Origin: Patescibacteria group bacterium | GTDB taxonomy: Bacteria > Patescibacteriota > Patescibacteriia > Magasanikbacterales > GWA2-37-8 | DNA: 64,000 bases | Assembly: GCA_041661385.1 (NCBI GenBank) | Contig: JBAZUP010000001.1 | Span: 640,907 to 704,906 of the forward strand | Direction: 5' to 3' | Shown here: in pieces, positions 7,767 to 54,930 of the stretch | Layout: every line of letters starts with the position of its first letter | Position numbering within the stretch: the first letter of the stretch is position 1 | Notes under the pieces: model-generated | Told to the model about the DNA's origin: nothing | Seen by the model: the letters and a program-made list of their open reading frames with translations, nothing else | The model's database searches: none | Position numbers and translations under genes: made by a program

Positions 7767-8975
7767 TTACTTCTTCTCCCCCGTTGTGGTGAGCCTCGCG
7801 TCTTCGGCCACCTTTACGCGGTCGAATACATAAACGCACTTCTCACCTTCGGCAGCGCCGCAGGGGTTGTCTTTCCTCTCCTTCACTTTCACCCAGTGAC
7901 CAGTGTCCTTGAGGACGCTGATCTTGGGCACATCGAGCCGGATCTTTTCTTCCACCTTCGGTTCAGGCTTCACTTCAACCTTCACCTCGGGCTTCTTGCT
8001 TGCAAGCTCGATGTCTGCAACCTTCAACGCGGAATTCACGTCGTACACGCAGTCAACAGCGACCACGCCAACGACACCGAGTGAAGAGTTGTTTGAAAGG
8101 CCGAGCCCTACACCAAGCGCCTTGTCGGCGGCATAGTTTGCAGCTCCGCTCGAGCTACCCCCTTGGCCATCTTGGCCGACCGTGAGGTAGACCTGATGAC
8201 CGTAGACGGTGACAATCTTGCGATTGAACGGAGCCGGGATGAGAACCTCATCCACCAGGAACGGCTTTTCATTGTCGAAACCATCGAGCATGCCGTGCAT
8301 CGTCTGCACGCGAACACCCGTCTGCCACAGACCAAAGATCTGTGGAACATGAGCATTGCGCTCGAATGGGCGAACCATGACCCTACGGCCGCAGTCGCCC
8401 ATCTTCTCGAGACGAACACCGCCCATGGCGATGGTGGTCGGAAGCGACGGCGGCTGCACCGGGAAGAAAGTGAGCTCCCGGCTGTTGTCGACATTGGTCG
8501 TGGTCTGATTGACCACCGCACCTCCGCCATTGCCGGAGTTTTCCACCTTCGCCTTGCCGCCCTCAGCGTTTCCGCCAGTTGCATTTCCGCCGGCAGCATT
8601 GCCACCCGCGCCACCAGCACCTCCTTGCGAGGTGGAAGAAGACGAGGCGTCGCCTGTCCTCACATCTCCGGTATGAACCGAAGTGTTCTGGTCACCAGTG
8701 GTGGAGGTCGAGGTAGAACCCGACTGTGCGTTGCCGCCAGTTGCCGTCGAAGCAGAGTTCGACGCCGAGTTGGCATTCGCGGTGACCTGTTGATTCTGGT
8801 CTTGAGACTGATGTTGGTTCTGATCCTGCTTCTGGTTCTGAGTCTGGGTCTGATTCAGGTTGCACGGCTTTCCCTTGGGGTGGCCGTGCTTTTCATCATC
8901 GCAGGCGAAAGCCGACGAAACGAAAAGGAATTGAACGAAAACCGCGAACACTGCCGCAAGCATCTTTTTTGACAT
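7767..8975 (-). CDS. GC-rich secreted protein of unknown function, Gln/Asn/Gly/Ser-rich low-complexity N-half (compositional island A)
   Basis: ATG at 8975 preceded by GGAGG (8983-8987 complement); MSKKMLAAVFAVFVQFLFVSSAFA signal peptide; strong GC3 codon bias unlike flanks; ORF-track start 9047 is an upstream in-frame alternative. Confidence 0.55.
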   Translation of the reverse strand: MSKKMLAAVFAVFVQFLFVSSAFACDDEKHGHPKGKPCNLNQTQTQNQKQDQNQHQSQDQNQQVTANANSASNSASTATGGNAQSGSTSTSTTGDQNTSVHTGDVRTGDASSSSTSQGGAGGAGGNAAGGNATGGNAEGGKAKVENSGNGGGAVVNQTTTNVDNSRELTFFPVQPPSLPTTIAMGGVRLEKMGDCGRRVMVRPFERNAHVPQIFGLWQTGVRVQTMHGMLDGFDNEKPFLVDEVLIPAPFNRKIVTVYGHQVYLTVGQDGQGGSSSGAANYAADKALGVGLGLSNNSSLGVVGVVAVDCVYDVNSALKVADIELASKKPEVKVEVKPEPKVEEKIRLDVPKISVLKDTGHWVKVKERKDNPCGAAEGEKCVYVFDRVKVAEDARLTTTGEKK

Positions 8976-9255
8976 CGAACTGCCTCCGTGGGTGAAAATC
9001 GATTGACCATCAACTTTCTTCATTGCGCAATTGTTGCTTTTGCACAACTGAAGATTCTATCATTTTTTTACCATATTGTCAATGATATATCGATATATTT
9101 AACTGAGCTCCAATCGTATTATCAACCGTAGAATTACCCCAAATCACTTAAAAACCGCCCTTACTTGGTTTATGCACCCTGTTCTACCCTTGATTTTTCA
9201 AAATATTTATGCTATTCTAGTCAAACAAAAATTGATGTTTTTACGCTAATAAAGC

Positions 9256-9341
9256 GGAGAGGTGGCCGAGCGGTTTAAGGCAACAGTCTTGAAAACTGTC
9301 GTGCCTAATAAGCACCGTGAGTTCGAATCTCACCCTCTCCG
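9256..9341 (+). tRNA. tRNA-Ser (anticodon TGA)
   Basis: GGAGAGG...CCTCTCC acceptor, long variable arm, anticodon loop CTTGAAA, T-arm GAGTTCGAATCTC. Confidence 0.9.
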
Positions 9342-9358
9342 CTTTGTTAGTAATAAAC

Positions 9359-15928: not shown

Positions 15929-16110
15929 ATTTATTTGAATTTCCGAGTGATTGAGTTTATATCGAAGATATAAGATATTTTCCCTTATTATACACTAAAT
16001 TAACACAAAATCAACCTATATAAATGATAAGGGCGGCCCAGTTTATGGGCTCGCCCTGTGTGAGGTTTTGCCTGCCCTCAGCAGGCCGCACGGATGCGGA
16101 AATTGGGTAT

Positions 16111-16464
16111 CTACCCGACCACCCCGACAGCTTCGGGGTAAAGAGTCTCGGGGTCGGGCCAGAGGGCCTCATTCACGTCGGCAAGCAAATCACCGAACGA
16201 AATTTCCCTCTCGGGATAGATGCGGTCCGGCTCGAGCCGCACGTAGCCAAGCCGATTGGCCAAAATGACCACATAACGGTGCTTGCCGCTCTTGTTGTAG
16301 ACCGCGAAGGTGAGTCCATCCTTGGTCCCGAAGGTCCCGCCAACCCCGAACTTCCCGGGGATCTTGGCCTTCACTGCCGCAGCGAGTCCGTCCGTTCCGA
16401 AGAACGAAAGCCAGCAAAAGTTTTCGCCAGCCTCAGCAACAGCCACTCTGATGTTAGTCTTCAC
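16111..16464 (-). CDS. GC-rich hypothetical protein (island B)
   Basis: 117 aa; extreme GC3 bias versus flanks; GC-rich hairpins 16031-16056 and 16070-16086 just downstream. Confidence 0.45.
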   Translation of the reverse strand: MKTNIRVAVAEAGENFCWLSFFGTDGLAAAVKAKIPGKFGVGGTFGTKDGLTFAVYNKSGKHRYVVILANRLGYVRLEPDRIYPEREISFGDLLADVNEALWPDPETLYPEAVGVVG

Positions 16465-16864
16465 GTTTTGACTCCTTGTTACTGGGTTTACCCGCCTAGA
16501 AAAGAACGATTTTTAATATTCCAGACCTTTTTATGTGTCTGGAGTGTGGTTTGTTTTGCAAAACACACCTCAAAACATAAAAATGCATAAAAAATCACCC
16601 TTTTTTGAAGGGTGATTATAGTTTTATCGATAAGCGCTACTTCTTAGGCATTTTCAAAAACATAATCACCCCTCTTATAAAAGAAGGCCCAGAAGCTAAA
16701 ATACTGTTGTGATTGATTATGTTTCATAGATTGAATTAAATTTACCCTAAACTTTAGGGGGCGTCAAGTGTGGATAAAATGCCGATAAACTTCAAACTAA
16801 TTTGGAGCTTAATAGGTTGGCAGAGATTAAGCCCTCTGCCATGGCTCCGTCGAAACGGAATGAG

Positions 16865-17185
16865 CTACTTCATAGGGCTCTTGCTGAAGAACCCCTCGCA
16901 GGTTAGGCTGAACAAATAGGCAGCCTCGCTGACCTTGAGATTCGTTCCAGCCTTGAACGAAAGAAGGTTGCCGCCGGAAAACCGGCCCCTCATTCGCGCC
17001 TCGCGCAATTTCTCGATCGTCCCCTCGTCATCGGGCTTCAGTGCACCCGACGCGCACAGCTGCCCCAGCTTGTTGAGCGCTGTCGCTTCATCAGGATCGA
17101 GCACCTGATGAAACACCCCGTAGAAAGATTCGTTCCTGAGCATCGAATCGATCATGAACTTCTGAATCACCGCCGCGTCAATCAT
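16865..17185 (-). CDS. GC-rich hypothetical protein (island B)
   Basis: 106 aa; same compositional class; hairpin ggcagag-attaagccc-tctgcc 16819-16840 downstream. Confidence 0.45.
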   Translation of the reverse strand: MIDAAVIQKFMIDSMLRNESFYGVFHQVLDPDEATALNKLGQLCASGALKPDDEGTIEKLREARMRGRFSGGNLLSFKAGTNLKVSEAAYLFSLTCEGFFSKSPMK

Positions 17186-17224
17186 CGAACTTCTCCTTGT
17201 GAGAGTAAATACAGTTGCTGTGAA

Positions 17225-17590
17225 CTACTTCTTGCTCGCTCGGGAGCTGATCCGCTCGAGGCCGGGCCACACGTTCTTCATGAAGAGTTCCGGCTTGAAG
17301 AACTTGACCGGACGCAGCACGATGGTACGCGCCGCCTCCCTCTCGACCTCCGAGGAGTTTCTGGGGCTATACCAATAACCCCGCTGGATCGCCTTGTGAA
17401 CCATGTCGAGGTCCTCGTCGCTCACGATGATCCGTGACCGATTGGACATGTCGACGAATTCGTCGAGAGACTTCACGACGTTCTCGTCAATCTTCGGCTT
17501 GAAGATGATGAGAAGCCGCTTGGTCACCCGAAGGGAATTCTGCAGCTCAGTGAGAGCCATGTCTTCTGTCTGGAACTGTCCATTTCCCAT
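17225..17590 (-). CDS. GC-rich hypothetical protein (island B)
   Basis: 121 aa; 40-bp gap to next island gene; no recognisable domain. Confidence 0.45.
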   Translation of the reverse strand: MGNGQFQTEDMALTELQNSLRVTKRLLIIFKPKIDENVVKSLDEFVDMSNRSRIIVSDEDLDMVHKAIQRGYWYSPRNSSEVEREAARTIVLRPVKFFKPELFMKNVWPGLERISSRASKK

Positions 17591-17838: not shown

Positions 17839-17843
17839 ATTTG

Positions 17844-17915
17844 AGGCCCGAGTGGGAATCGCACCCACGCATAGGGGTTTTGCAGACCCCTGCCTTACTG
17901 CTTGGCTATCGGGCC
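17844..17915 (-). tRNA. tRNA-Cys (anticodon GCA)
   Basis: GGCCCGA...TCGGGCC acceptor with discriminator U, anticodon loop CTGCAAA, T-arm GTGGGTGCGATTCCCAC. Confidence 0.9.
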
Positions 17916-51784: not shown

Positions 51785-52537
51785 ATGTCAATTGTCGTTA
51801 AGCATTGCGACGCATTACTTGCGAAGCATCATACTCGGGTTTCACCCATTGTTTTGTCGGTTGCTTCCTTGTTAGTTTTCGGCTTAATCAGTCCTACACT
51901 GTTATATGCCGCAGAAGTAACATCGAGCGCTTCAAATTTATCGCCCGCACCATTGGAATTTCGGCCGGAGCGACCAAGAATACTTTTTGGTTCTTCCACG
52001 CCAGCCTCAATGTTAGCTTCGTCCACCGTCCCATTTAGGGAAGGAGCGGAGCGAGAAAAAGGTTTTTCAAGTTCGTCTACAGCGCGAGTTATACAATTCA
52101 AAACCGCGCGTATTCAACTTATGAAAGAGGCGCTCGCCAAAATCGAGCAGCAAGCCAGGGATTTAAGAATCCAATTGGAAAATCTTCAATATGCGAGCAC
52201 ATCTTCAACCGAAGCGTTGAATGTGGGACAATTTAATCAAAAAATTAATGCTTTAATCCTAGTTTTTAGGAAAGTTAATTTCAACTATGAATTAACAAGA
52301 CTTAAGACTGATTTAAAGAGTGAGTTTAATAAACGCGATCTGCAACTAAAAAAAGAATTGCAGAAAGAACAAGCGGAAGCCGCTCGCGAACTATACAAAA
52401 AACAAACGGAGCTCAATAGGGAAACCTTAAAAAAAGAGCAAGAATTATTGAAGGAGCAGAGGGAACATAATTTACCCGGAGCAGCCAGTACTTCTCCGGA
52501 GCAAGCCTCAGCATCTTCGACCACTTCTAGTCCGTAA
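51785..52537 (+). CDS. hypothetical membrane-anchored coiled-coil protein
   Basis: start moved to ATG 51785 because promoter overlaps 51641; TM helix then coiled-coil/low-complexity (KELQKEQAEAARELYKKQTELNRETLKKEQELLKEQ). Confidence 0.45.
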   Translation: MSIVVKHCDALLAKHHTRVSPIVLSVASLLVFGLISPTLLYAAEVTSSASNLSPAPLEFRPERPRILFGSSTPASMLASSTVPFREGAEREKGFSSSSTARVIQFKTARIQLMKEALAKIEQQARDLRIQLENLQYASTSSTEALNVGQFNQKINALILVFRKVNFNYELTRLKTDLKSEFNKRDLQLKKELQKEQAEAARELYKKQTELNRETLKKEQELLKEQREHNLPGAASTSPEQASASSTTSSP

Positions 52538-52574
52538 GTAAAAAATTCTTTAACAATTAATTATGAAAAAATAA

Positions 52575-52640
52575 ACCGCCCCAGAAGGGCGGTTTTGTAT
52601 TTTAAAATAGAAAGTCCCGGACGCACATACTTGCGTCCGG
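52575..52640. terminator. paired hairpins between convergent genes
   Basis: ccgcccc-agaa-gggcgg then gtcccggacgca-catact-tgcgtccgggac (GC-rich 12-bp stem). Confidence 0.55.
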
Positions 52641-52818
52641 GACTTAGTTTCAAACCCCATTAGGGGCTACTCCTATTTTTTTTCGATAATCTTTTTTGCG
52701 ACCTGAATCGCCCTGTCCCGATATTTGGCCGGGATTTTTTGCAAGGCTGAAGCCAGTTCGCGTAGTCCAACCGACAGGGTGGTTGCTTCCGCGATAGGTT
52801 CTGCGCCCAATTTCAGCA

Positions 52819-53922
52819 TTACCATGGCAACCTGGAATATCTGATTTTCGTCGGCATGCGCCAGCGTGCCATGCAGAACGGGCGAAATAGTGACCGCCGT
52901 TCCCGATGTTTGGGTTGTGGGCGTGGTAGCGCCGTTCTTAAAGCGGTAAGACCGCTTAACACCGACCTGAATTTTTCCAGGTGGTGTCTGTCCACCAGTT
53001 GCCGCAGGCTTTGTCCGACGGACCGGAGTGATGCCGGGCCGGAATAAACCTCGTCGTCACACAGCAGTTTGAAAACTTCTCGGGTCGTGACGGATTTGGT
53101 TTTGCCGCCGAGTTTCTCGACACAATCCAGAATAATTTTATCAGGAATGACACTCATGGTTGTCTCCGGGTTGGTTTGTTGTTTGGATTCCTCAAGCTCA
53201 GCTTGAAAGAAAGACCCGCTTTCAACTTTTTTAGAACGAATGCCGAAATGCGTTTTTTTGCTTTGCTTATTTGCAAGGTTTGCTTGCCAGTTTTTTATAC
53301 CTTTACGCAGGGTATTTATTGCCTTTGCTTCTATTAGGCGGATTCCTTCGCGCGAAATTATATCTCCGCTGCGGCCAAGAATTGATTCGCCCACGGATTG
53401 AAGCGAAGGAATTTCTTCTCCGGAAAAATAACGAAGTTTTATTACTTCGCGCTGTTTTCCATGAAGTAAGGCAATAACCGCTTGTTGAAGAAGTTGAACA
53501 TCACCCTCGGTGTTTAATCCAAGTAAATTTTCCGGTCCGGAAAATTTATCTGGAATCTCGTCTTTTAGAGTGGTGTCAGAATCCTCATAGAGAGGCGCAT
53601 CAAGTGATATTTCCACCGGATGCTTTTTTAAATAACGCCTCATGAAAGCGAGAATCCACCATTGCGCGTAGGTTGCGAACCGGTTCTTATAAACCGGATC
53701 ATATTTTTCAACTGCTTGAATGAGTCCAAGGAAACCTTCTTGCGTTAGTTCTTCACCAAGATGCTTGTTTGCTCGGCTTAGTTTAAAAGCAAGACTCCGA
53801 ACAAATCCAGTACAGGACAAAATAAGTCTGTCCCGGGCTTTTAGGTCGCAGGAGGTTTTCCAGCGTCTTGAAAGCTCTCTTTCTTCACCCGGAAGCAATA
53901 CAGCTAAAGGAAGTTGGGGCAT
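52819..53922 (-). CDS. sigma-70 family RNA polymerase sigma factor (regions 2 and 4) with ~110-aa C-terminal extension that is GC-rich (possible fusion or separate gene from 53157)
   Basis: region 2 LGLIQAVEKYDPVYKNRFATYAQWWILAFMRRYL; region 4 REVIKLRYFSGEEIPSLQSVGESILGRSGDIISREGIRLIEAKAINTLRK; in-frame ATG at 53157 with GGAGA 5 nt upstream; GC content rises sharply downstream of ~53050. Confidence 0.6.
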   Translation of the reverse strand: MPQLPLAVLLPGEERELSRRWKTSCDLKARDRLILSCTGFVRSLAFKLSRANKHLGEELTQEGFLGLIQAVEKYDPVYKNRFATYAQWWILAFMRRYLKKHPVEISLDAPLYEDSDTTLKDEIPDKFSGPENLLGLNTEGDVQLLQQAVIALLHGKQREVIKLRYFSGEEIPSLQSVGESILGRSGDIISREGIRLIEAKAINTLRKGIKNWQANLANKQSKKTHFGIRSKKVESGSFFQAELEESKQQTNPETTMSVIPDKIILDCVEKLGGKTKSVTTREVFKLLCDDEVYSGPASLRSVGQSLRQLVDRHHLEKFRSVLSGLTALRTALPRPQPKHRERRSLFRPFCMARWRMPTKIRYSRLPW

Positions 53923-54010
53923 GGCATTCTCCCTGATTATGCGTTGGAAAAGAGCAAATTTGTGTAGTCACCCTATCATAAGGTGGTTTTAAGTCAACAA
54001 TCGCCCATAA

Positions 54011-54039
54011 TTGACAATTCAAGCGTTTATATATATAAT
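54011..54039 (+). promoter_or_regulatory. sigma70-type promoter (TTGACA-17-TATAAT) for tRNA-Ala
   Basis: ttgaca 54011-54016, 17-nt spacer, tataat 54034-54039, tRNA begins 54054. Confidence 0.65.
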
Positions 54040-54053
54040 GTGAACACAATTTT

Positions 54054-54127
<74 letters not shown>

Positions 54128-54354
54128 CAAATGAACAGAGATTTTAATCTCTGTTTTATTTTGTTTTTAATATTGACAAAAGCGTAATTTTGTGATATTA
54201 TGTTATGTTGCTTTTTACTCTATTTTTAGCAAAAAAAGCGATAAATGCTCATTAAAATGCAGTTTCAGCTGTGCAAATAGCCCATGTTTCGTGGTTTGTT
54301 TGCACGGGTGAACTGCAGTCAACTAGTTCGCGCTATAGGGGCGCAGGAGGAAAC

Positions 54355-54930
54355 ATGACCGTGTTTCGGATTCTTGGCAGGTGGCTGTTCGGCGTCATCA
54401 GTACTCTCGCATTCTTCGGCATCGTGTACGGTGTCGTTTGGTACTTCTTCGGAGTTACCGTAGTCACGTCGAAGTGCGAAAACCAGGACGTGATTTCGAA
54501 GGTGTACATCAACAACGAATACCGGGGCGAAACGCCCCTCAGTGTCCGTCTGGGTATGGGAAATCACATCGTGAAGATCGAGCCTCCCGAAGGTTATCGG
54601 GGTCAGCATCTTTACATGGAGTTCTGGAGTATGGGTCGCGGTATAAATTTCGCCGAGACTCTTACCAAGCTTGACTACCAGGTCACGCTTCACAGTCCTG
54701 CCAGTCAGCCTGGCAACTTCATGGTGATGGACGGAGCCGGAAAACCCATTGGAGCCTGTGGCGGCGTTGTATGTTCAATCCCTCTTCCGGGTCCAGGAAC
54801 CTACCGCGCCAAGCTGGAGCAAATTTGCTGGTCCAGTAACGGGACCCGATGGTGCACCGGCGGCGACGAAAAAGCGATGGACTTTGCTGTCCATCCTGAT
54901 CAGCCGACGGCTGAGATGACGTGGAACTAA
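54355..54930 (+). CDS. GC-rich PEGA-domain membrane protein (island C)
   Basis: AGGAGG 54345-54350 then ATG 54355; N-terminal TM; VYINNEYRGETPLSVRLGMGNHIVKIEPPEGY matches PEGA domain; strong GC3 bias; ORF-track start 54271 is upstream alternative. Confidence 0.6.
   Translation: MTVFRILGRWLFGVISTLAFFGIVYGVVWYFFGVTVVTSKCENQDVISKVYINNEYRGETPLSVRLGMGNHIVKIEPPEGYRGQHLYMEFWSMGRGINFAETLTKLDYQVTLHSPASQPGNFMVMDGAGKPIGACGGVVCSIPLPGPGTYRAKLEQICWSSNGTRWCTGGDEKAMDFAVHPDQPTAEMTWN

Follow-up and report, generated by a model that had tools for sequence, protein, structure and literature searches.

C-terminal extensions of extracytoplasmic function (ECF) sigma factors replace the anti-sigma factor and act by conformational change, protein interaction or proteolysis (PMC8999054). 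A gene that resembles these factors in its layout lies on the stretch of DNA analysed here, 64,000 nucleotides of a Patescibacteria group bacterium (GenBank assembly GCA_041661385.1, contig JBAZUP010000001.1, positions 640,907 to 704,906 of the forward strand; hereafter the window), where a minus-strand open reading frame (ORF) at 52819..53922 encodes a sigma-70-family protein of 367 aa (P0001). In our judgement, this ORF is probably the larger part of a single alternative sigma-70 gene (sigma2 plus sigma4) that belongs to a tiny subfamily in Patescibacteria, carries an ancestral extension of ~160 residues made of a winged helix-turn-helix (wHTH), a linker and a helical domain, and has been split in this genome by a frameshift.

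The likeness to the ECF sigma factors with a C-terminal extension (PMC8999054) lies in the order of the parts, as sigma2 and sigma4 are followed in the same polypeptide by a conserved extension of >100 residues. No recognisable anti-sigma gene is adjacent in the window, and the extension is peculiar to the family, the nearest ordinary sigma factors being without it. The locus differs in its sigma domains, which look more like those of groups 1-3 (the best NCBIfam matches are to region 2 of RpoS/RpoD/RpoH, and region 4 matches Sigma70_r4, not r4_2), and in the type of extension, as a wHTH with a helical domain is not mentioned in that review, where the words 'winged' and 'DNA-binding' are absent (PMC8999054). 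Contacts between the sigma part and the extension cannot be compared with those of ECF factors from a full-length model with a predicted template modelling score (pTM) of 0.31. Neither a sigma-wHTH fusion nor frameshifted Patescibacteria sigma genes came up in a search of the literature. The second parallel is with genes of metagenome-assembled genomes (MAGs) that are split by a homopolymer indel and annotated as two ORFs, with a junk tail on the upstream ORF and a 'hypothetical protein' remnant downstream; we see no essential difference between these and the present locus.

Gene structure and the frameshift

The sigma-70-family part occupies codons 1-255 (53158..53922, minus strand) and was matched by both Pfam and NCBIfam; its composition is host-like, with a GC content at third codon positions (GC3) of 0.35. 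Region 2 is covered by Pfam Sigma70_r2 (PF04542, residues 36-101), which scored 47.7 bits against a cut-off of 24, and region 4 by Sigma70_r4 (PF04545, residues 151-207) at 19.4 bits, under its cut-off of 24.1. The NCBIfam model TIGR02937, which spans sigma2 and sigma4, scored above its cut-off (67.2 versus 42.9); PF04545 is on record for the orthologues described below, and many sigma factors align through residues 207-218 of the window ORF. The linker between sigma2 and sigma4 is only ~50 aa long. Because neither region 1.2 nor region 3 was matched in the Pfam and NCBIfam scans, the protein is best classed, from its domains, as a short two-domain (sigma2-sigma4) alternative factor and not a housekeeping one, which does not agree with the 'essential-type' regulator proposed in a preliminary description of this DNA.

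As that description had noted, the ORF runs from 53922 to 52819, well past region 4. A search with the 367-aa ORF returned two close homologues, P0002 (399 aa) and P0003 (398 aa), at 87% query coverage, and a third orthologue, P0121 (410 aa), was recovered with a profile of the extension; the orthologues are 44-50% identical and lie in different genomic contexts. Together with the repaired window protein, they make up the four-sequence family alignment. BLASTP alignments to P0002 and P0003 ended at query residue 320, with 97-98 subject residues remaining. The frame of a small 50-codon ORF (MVMLKLGAEP...; 52673..52825, minus strand), which overlaps the end of the 367-aa ORF, stays open in the three-frame translation for 77 further codons upstream with no ATG, GTG or TTG, and such an open but start-less stretch is the mark of a frameshift. 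Homology to the family runs in the sigma frame as far as ...LRQLVDRHHLEK (...LVDRHHLEK) and in the -1 frame from IQVGVKRSYRFKNG... (IQVGVKRSYR...) to a stop at 52673. Because the invariant L315 and K317 are read in the sigma frame and the invariant Q319 and G321 in the -1 frame, the shift can be placed within G-AAAAA-T (52971..52977, minus strand), where the DNA is one base short relative to the family frame and the downstream frame is -1; the A5 run that carries the shift is 52976-52972. With one A inserted, the gene encodes 416 aa, and this repaired protein can be aligned with P0002, P0003 and P0121 from end to end. This -1 frameshift, the actual anomaly of the locus, had been overlooked in the preliminary description.

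In the repaired gene, the first 62 codons of the extension (residues 256-317; 52972..53157, minus strand) are read in the sigma frame and contain helices H1-H3 of the predicted winged helix. The continuation, 99 codons and a TAG in the -1 frame (52673..52972, minus strand), contains the beta-hairpin of the wing, a Pro/Thr/Ala-rich linker and a four-helix C-terminal domain of ~58 aa, and the true stop of the gene is at 52675-52673. The last 49 codons of the annotated ORF (FRSVLSGL...SRLPW, then TAA; 52819..52971, minus strand), in which the family frame is left at residue 318-320, showed no homology to any family member in the family alignments and are, as we read them, out-of-frame junk, and the 50-codon ORF, which corresponds to the last 50 residues of the C-terminal domain of the family, reads as the real C-terminus. 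The two ORFs of the window match the two ends of the extension profile, the 367-aa ORF at positions 1-65 (residues 256-320, E = 6e-22) and a 48-aa version of the small ORF (P0122) at positions 116-162, in the C-terminal domain (E = 7e-18). The latter ORF is annotated by NCBI as a separate hypothetical protein, WC725_03440. Its overlap with the annotated stop in another frame and the GC-rich ~150 bp beyond that stop, both reported before, are present; they represent neither a further gene nor DNA beyond the gene, which is still coding as far as 52675-52673. Nor does the independent 112-aa protein that had been suggested to start at the boundary ATG survive the comparison, as its homology to the family is confined to the first 62 residues and the other 49 are read out of frame. 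The shifted frame ends in a stop that overlaps the ATG pair of the small ORF and the codon of the invariant Met369 (ATGGTAATG, UAAUG; 52819-52825, minus strand). This could be a termination-reinitiation arrangement, with a peptide of 48-50 aa, most of the conserved helical domain, as a possible product.

We propose that one base was lost from an A run (A6 to A5, 52976-52972) at the start of the hairpin of the wHTH wing. Translation would then leave the conserved frame after residue 317, read 49 nonsense codons and stop at 52819, and 99 conserved codons would be stranded in the -1 frame, the last 50 of which have been called as a separate small ORF. In the structural model, the shift falls after the recognition helix, at the first wing strand, and is predicted to remove the wing, the linker and the helical domain. 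The product of normal decoding would consist of sigma2-sigma4 and a wingless, truncated wHTH without the C-terminal helical domain, and the loss of the extension would change the activity of the sigma factor, which would probably be deregulated.

The possibility that the shift is a sequencing or assembly artefact, and that the organism in fact carries A6 and an unbroken gene of 416 aa, is raised by the fact that a single-base homopolymer difference is a classic type of error and that the repaired gene is perfectly intact. However, the exact 367-aa product is encoded on contigs of the ENA assembly ERZ27249449, made with megahit, and of the Logan assemblies of SRR18595301 and SRR6484324, which come from different SRA runs; over the 1.7-1.8 kb compared, these contigs and the window are 100% identical, the frameshift site is identical in the loci L001-L003, and two NCBI MAG protein records hold the 367-aa product, each beside a 50-aa 'hypothetical protein'. 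Short-read platforms are not prone to errors in a run of five bases. Because the shift is reproduced across data sets and lies in such a run, we take it as real, probably as a mutation in one clonal population, and regard an artefact as very unlikely. The stranded 99 codons are conserved like those of intact orthologues (54% identity to P0003, compared with 50% between P0002 and P0003), which points to a recent mutation or to continued translation of the stretch. From the identical independent assemblies and the undecayed state of the stranded part, we infer that the frameshift is both real and recent. Exact-DNA scans around the frameshift with A4-A7 allowed, carried out on genome contigs together with peptide patterns and on metagenome contigs, found nothing, so that neither an A6 allele nor a relative of the source genome was recovered.

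Continued translation could also mean that the frameshift is decoded, either by a -1 ribosomal slip on G_GAA_AAA_U, in which tRNA-Lys re-pairs on AAA, or by addition of an A by RNA polymerase, so that both the 367-aa and the 416-aa sigma factors are made. The shift lies exactly on the A5 run, where the A-site tRNA-Lys would re-pair perfectly in the -1 frame, the site is within a strongly structured stretch (z = -5.5), and the lack of decay would fit. But G_GAA_AAA is not a slippery heptamer of the X_XXY_YYZ type, as re-pairing is perfect at the A-site codon only and imperfect at the P site (GAA to GGA). Moreover, the A run forms the loop of a hairpin instead of lying upstream of one, the next hairpin begins 14 nt downstream, neither a stimulatory structure 5-9 nt downstream nor an upstream element resembling a Shine-Dalgarno (SD) sequence was found, and the downstream 122 nt fold no better than shuffled sequences (z = -1.4). 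A5 is also short for transcriptional slippage, every frameshifted copy is the same clone, and P0002, P0003 and P0121 are all single-frame and lack the A run at the site, so that the shift is not conserved among diverged relatives. Given the heptamer, the position of the run in a loop, the weak downstream fold and the single-frame orthologues, programmed -1 slippage is not supported, and decoding in either form seems to us very unlikely. An Rfam scan of 52300-54300 gave tRNA-Ala only, and no frameshift element or leader RNA. A real and recent frameshift therefore remains the reading that we prefer.

The hairpin that has the A5 run as its loop is imperfect and 13 bp long (GACACCACCUGGA / UUCAGGU-CGGUGU; 52900-52990, minus strand), and a perfect 7-bp hairpin, AAGCGGU-CUU-ACCGCUU, follows directly after it; the two together have a folding energy of -34.6 kcal/mol, with the z of -5.5 given above. 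The paired hairpins may have favoured slippage during replication. The inverted repeat is absent from the corresponding codons of the orthologues, as judged by eye and not by folding.

Predicted fold and internal start of the extension

AlphaFold2, run on the four-sequence alignment, predicted a winged helix at residues 258-330 with the order H-b-H-H-b-b (predicted local distance difference test (pLDDT) 74-88), a disordered Pro/Thr/Ala-rich linker at 331-357 and four short helices at 358-415 (pLDDT 60-70). The order of elements that defines the wHTH fold (H1-S1-H2-H3-S2-S3) is present in this model. In a Foldseek search of the PDB, the matches were winged helices of Fur/Zur/PerR, PadR, BlaI, TubR and histone H1, all top matches being wHTH domains, with root-mean-square deviations of 1.6-3 Å over ~70 columns and a probability of 1.0. 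Pfam and NCBIfam gave no match for the window extension, which was not assigned to a named wHTH family; one orthologue matches Pfam HTH_12 at E = 8e-4, and no PDB sequence was matched meaningfully by the extension profile. The extension is thus like the Fur/Zur/PerR, PadR and BlaI/MecI domains in its predicted H1-b1-H2-H3-b2-b3 topology, with template modelling (TM) scores of up to 0.7-0.8 against the isolated domains, and like PadR also in the C-terminal helices that follow the wHTH. These domains differ in that sequence similarity to them is absent or marginal, with Foldseek E-values of only 2e-3 to 3e-2, and in that they are free-standing, whereas the window wHTH is fused to a sigma factor and its DNA binding is predicted from the fold. 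By analogy with sigma factors that bear C-terminal extensions, and from its predicted wHTH fold, the extension would be a cis-acting regulatory or additional DNA-binding module.

The sigma part is joined to the extension by a poorly conserved linker (residues 208-255), and an SD-like GGAGA (53167-53163) and an in-frame ATG, the codon of Met256 (53157-53155), stand at the boundary with a 5-nt spacer between them (together 53155..53167, minus strand). Both had been pointed out in the preliminary description, and the pair proved to be conserved in all four genes of the family. Met256 and Glu253 are invariant in the four members within the otherwise unconserved linker, and each gene has an SD-like motif 4-5 nt before the boundary ATG (window, GGAGAcaaccATG; P0002, GAGGActcaATG; P0003, GGAGGGtctcATG; P0121, GGAGGAaaatATG). 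The energies of the duplex with the anti-SD at this ATG are -6.6, -5.8, -10.0 and -9.5 kcal/mol in the four genes; no other internal ATG of the same gene pairs as strongly with the anti-SD, the values are comparable with those of true starts, and only 10% of codon positions score <= -6 kcal/mol. Apart from the SD, the 30 nt upstream are G-poor in all four genes. The family thus has, as expected of a nested start, a conserved in-frame start with an SD at proper spacing, and separate translation of the extension from the internal ATG is plausible, if unproven, so that the extension might also be made as a free protein in the family. A comparable case is found in the account of Cas11b in PMC11899642, where a nested in-frame start within cas8b releases the C-terminal domain. 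What that account and the present genes share is an in-frame start within a longer ORF, at an ATG that is conserved, has an SD and coincides with a domain boundary, whereas here the arrangement is known from sequence alone, in four genes, with low local RNA structure in two.

The linker between sigma4 and the extension (53158-53300) is 17-21 residues longer in the window than in P0002 and P0003 (FGIRSKKVESGSFFQAELEESKQQ), and it is AT-rich and host-like.

Origin of the fusion and the compositional step

In all three orthologues, one frame encodes both the sigma part and the extension, and no stop separates them at the boundary, so that the gene fusion considered in the preliminary description holds, the sigma domains and the GC-rich part forming one protein. 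By comparison, >40 ordinary sigma factors end 1-18 residues past the position aligned to residues 207-218. Because the same extension is fused in frame in three orthologues, the fusion appears to be ancestral to the subfamily, and not the product of a foreign insertion or of a lost stop in the window genome. It had been proposed that orthologues with the same extension would speak against a new chimera, and as far as the architecture is concerned this is what was found.

The separate search of the extension that had been advised was also informative. Run against 1.84e9 cluster representatives, a HMMER profile of the extension found P0003, P0121, the two window ORFs, a 35-aa fragment at a contig edge and two low-complexity matches, that is, only a tiny sigma-fused family, and no free-standing homologue. 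The extension itself therefore appears to be a tiny family, and every complete gene in which it occurs joins it to this sigma factor. Word-index protein searches gave no match, not even to the window's own protein, whether the query was the isolated extension or its three-sequence alignment; as the exhaustive HMMER search found the family, these negatives reflect the sensitivity of the tool. The word-index search missed the window protein and two orthologues, which are present in the database with long stretches of identity or similarity, and its negatives for short domains are untrustworthy. A related-locus search of metagenome contigs with the full-length alignment gave only distant sigma factors matching region 2, and no paralogue or repeat of the GC-rich segment (segment D of the preliminary description) or of the sigma part was found elsewhere in the window.

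The jump in composition that had been reported is real and specific to the window genome. GC content in 150-nt windows rises from 0.40 to 0.52-0.57 between ~53150 and 52700, and maximum-likelihood change points at 53112 and 52698 separate segments of 0.43, 0.56 and 0.40, delimiting a GC-rich tract (52698..53112; 0.56, with flanks of 0.40-0.43) that lies wholly inside the extension-coding region. GC3 changes at codon 267 (support 232-276) from 0.35 to 0.59, with a log-likelihood ratio of 11.4; in 160-codon windows of the other window genes it is 0.37 +/- 0.08, and the 3% that reach 0.57 are all in three other GC-rich genes. Because GC at codon positions 1+2 is nearly flat (0.47 versus 0.49), the step is synonymous and not an amino-acid effect. 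Between the N-terminal part and the extension, GC3 goes from 0.35 to 0.57 in the window gene and from 0.53 to 0.68 in P0002, and P0003 (0.49 and 0.52) and P0121 (0.55 in both) show no step. The synonymous step is specific to the AT-rich genome of the window; the family is otherwise found in GC-richer contexts, at loci of 43-51% GC. The sigma parts of the window gene, P0002 and P0003 are about equidistant (55-62% identity), the wHTH of the window is 32-37% identical to those of P0002 and P0003, which are 60% identical to each other, and the helical domain of the window is closest to that of P0003 (66%). These values suggest, on small numbers and without amounting to proof, that the 3' half was replaced by the allele of a GC-richer family member, and such a homologous replacement would be the most likely origin of the GC-rich extension.

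Other GC-rich gene blocks, with a GC3 of 0.55-0.80 compared with a typical ~0.35, occur in the window at 7767-9047, 16024-17590 and 54271-54930, the last being a gene with a PEGA domain, and each adjoins a tRNA gene (tRNA-Ser 9256-9342, tRNA-Cys 17843-17915 and tRNA-Ala 54054-54128, respectively). A GC-rich block beside a tRNA gene is a pattern typical of small integrated islets, which implies that the window genome takes up GC-richer DNA.

These blocks, the sharp synonymous step found in this genome only and the SD and ATG at the boundary are all in keeping with the explanation put forward in the preliminary description, namely that a foreign GC-rich fragment was inserted in frame or a stop was lost, giving a new chimera, or that segment D is a foreign gene in its own right, served by a separate ribosome-binding site. 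However, the same stop-free architecture is found in three diverged orthologues in other contexts, two of which lack the step, and the extension profile found no free-standing homologue among the 1.84e9 representatives. The orthologues could be recent transfers of a chimera formed in the window genome, but this is implausible at their level of identity, and separate translation from the internal ATG may hold as a feature of the family, not of a foreign gene. Because the architecture appears to be ancestral and no free homologue was found among the representatives, any foreign DNA would have replaced a homologous segment and would not have created the fusion. We therefore consider a foreign insertion, a lost stop or a separate foreign gene highly improbable, and the least probable of the explanations weighed here.

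The reading that we prefer, an ancestral sigma-wHTH gene split by a recent frameshift, has several points weighing against it. A systematic error or a mixed A5/A6 population is possible, as the comparison was of assemblies and records, not of reads, and all frameshifted copies are 100% identical, that is, one clone and no independent lineages. The undecayed stranded part fits continued translation, by slippage or re-initiation, equally well. The family alignment comprises only four sequences, the model of the full-length protein is of low quality, the proposed function of the extension is read from its fold, and the surroundings of the internal start are low in RNA structure in no more than half of the genes. 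Finally, searches of genome and metagenome contigs found no donor for the GC-rich half.

Promoter-leader, gene surroundings and meaning for the family

Upstream of the gene, a promoter-like element, TTGACT-N16-TAGGGT with a TG one base upstream (extended -10 type), lies at 53970..53997 on the minus strand and is the sole match to the pattern in the window, where 0.03 were expected. An alignment shows its nucleotide sequence to be conserved in front of the orthologues in L004 and L009 as well, and TTGACT-N16-TAGGGT is predicted to act as a promoter. Between it and the SD, a leader block, TGCTCTTTTCCAAC (53943..53956, minus strand), is near-identical in the window, L004 and L009 and has a single copy in the window; an operator or a leader would be possible roles. 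The conserved order is GTTGACTT-N12-TGATAGGGT, 8-12 nt, TGCTCtTTTCCAAC and the SD, and the nucleotide sequence of the whole promoter-leader is conserved (window 53925-54000, minus strand; L004 880-960; L009 4920-5000), the flanking genes being non-syntenic. By its sequence, it could be a conserved promoter of the housekeeping type with an operator. The leader and promoter motifs were found nowhere else in the window, and because they are single-copy there, no regulon can be inferred. Two hairpins resembling intrinsic terminators were found at the other end of the gene by a terminator scan (52573..52645, minus strand; one at 52645-52612 and a bidirectional one at 52595-52573), and they lie after the corrected stop at 52673, not after the annotated stop at 52819.

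In the orthologue loci (L004 2172-3633; L009 6300-8844; L035/L036), the sigma-wHTH gene has downstream of it an ECF-type sigma gene and a gene for a DUF5667 protein or for a large protein without annotation, with infC and rplT farther along. The window lacks those downstream genes, and a 298-aa ORF converges on the sigma gene instead.

The internal start and the leader block lead us to a more speculative proposal, which we hold only tentatively and consider doubtful: one frame might give two proteins, the sigma-wHTH fusion and a free wHTH-helical protein made from the internal SD and ATG, and the free form might serve as an antagonist or autoregulator, for example at TGCTCTTTTCCAAC in its own promoter-leader. 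The frameshift in the window would then have removed a brake, or would have split the module into a truncated sigma factor and a 48-aa helical peptide re-initiated at AUGGUAAUG.

In summary, the 367-aa sigma factor and the small hypothetical protein of 50 aa in the public records should be treated as a single frameshifted gene of 416 aa, and the frameshift, the split annotation and the compositional step are ordinary events of genome evolution and annotation. The gene defines a very rare sigma architecture in Patescibacteria, sigma2-sigma4 followed by a winged helix and a small helical domain. As regulation in the reduced genomes of Patescibacteria is poorly understood, the conserved internal start and promoter-leader make this family a tractable candidate for a self-contained sigma/regulator module.

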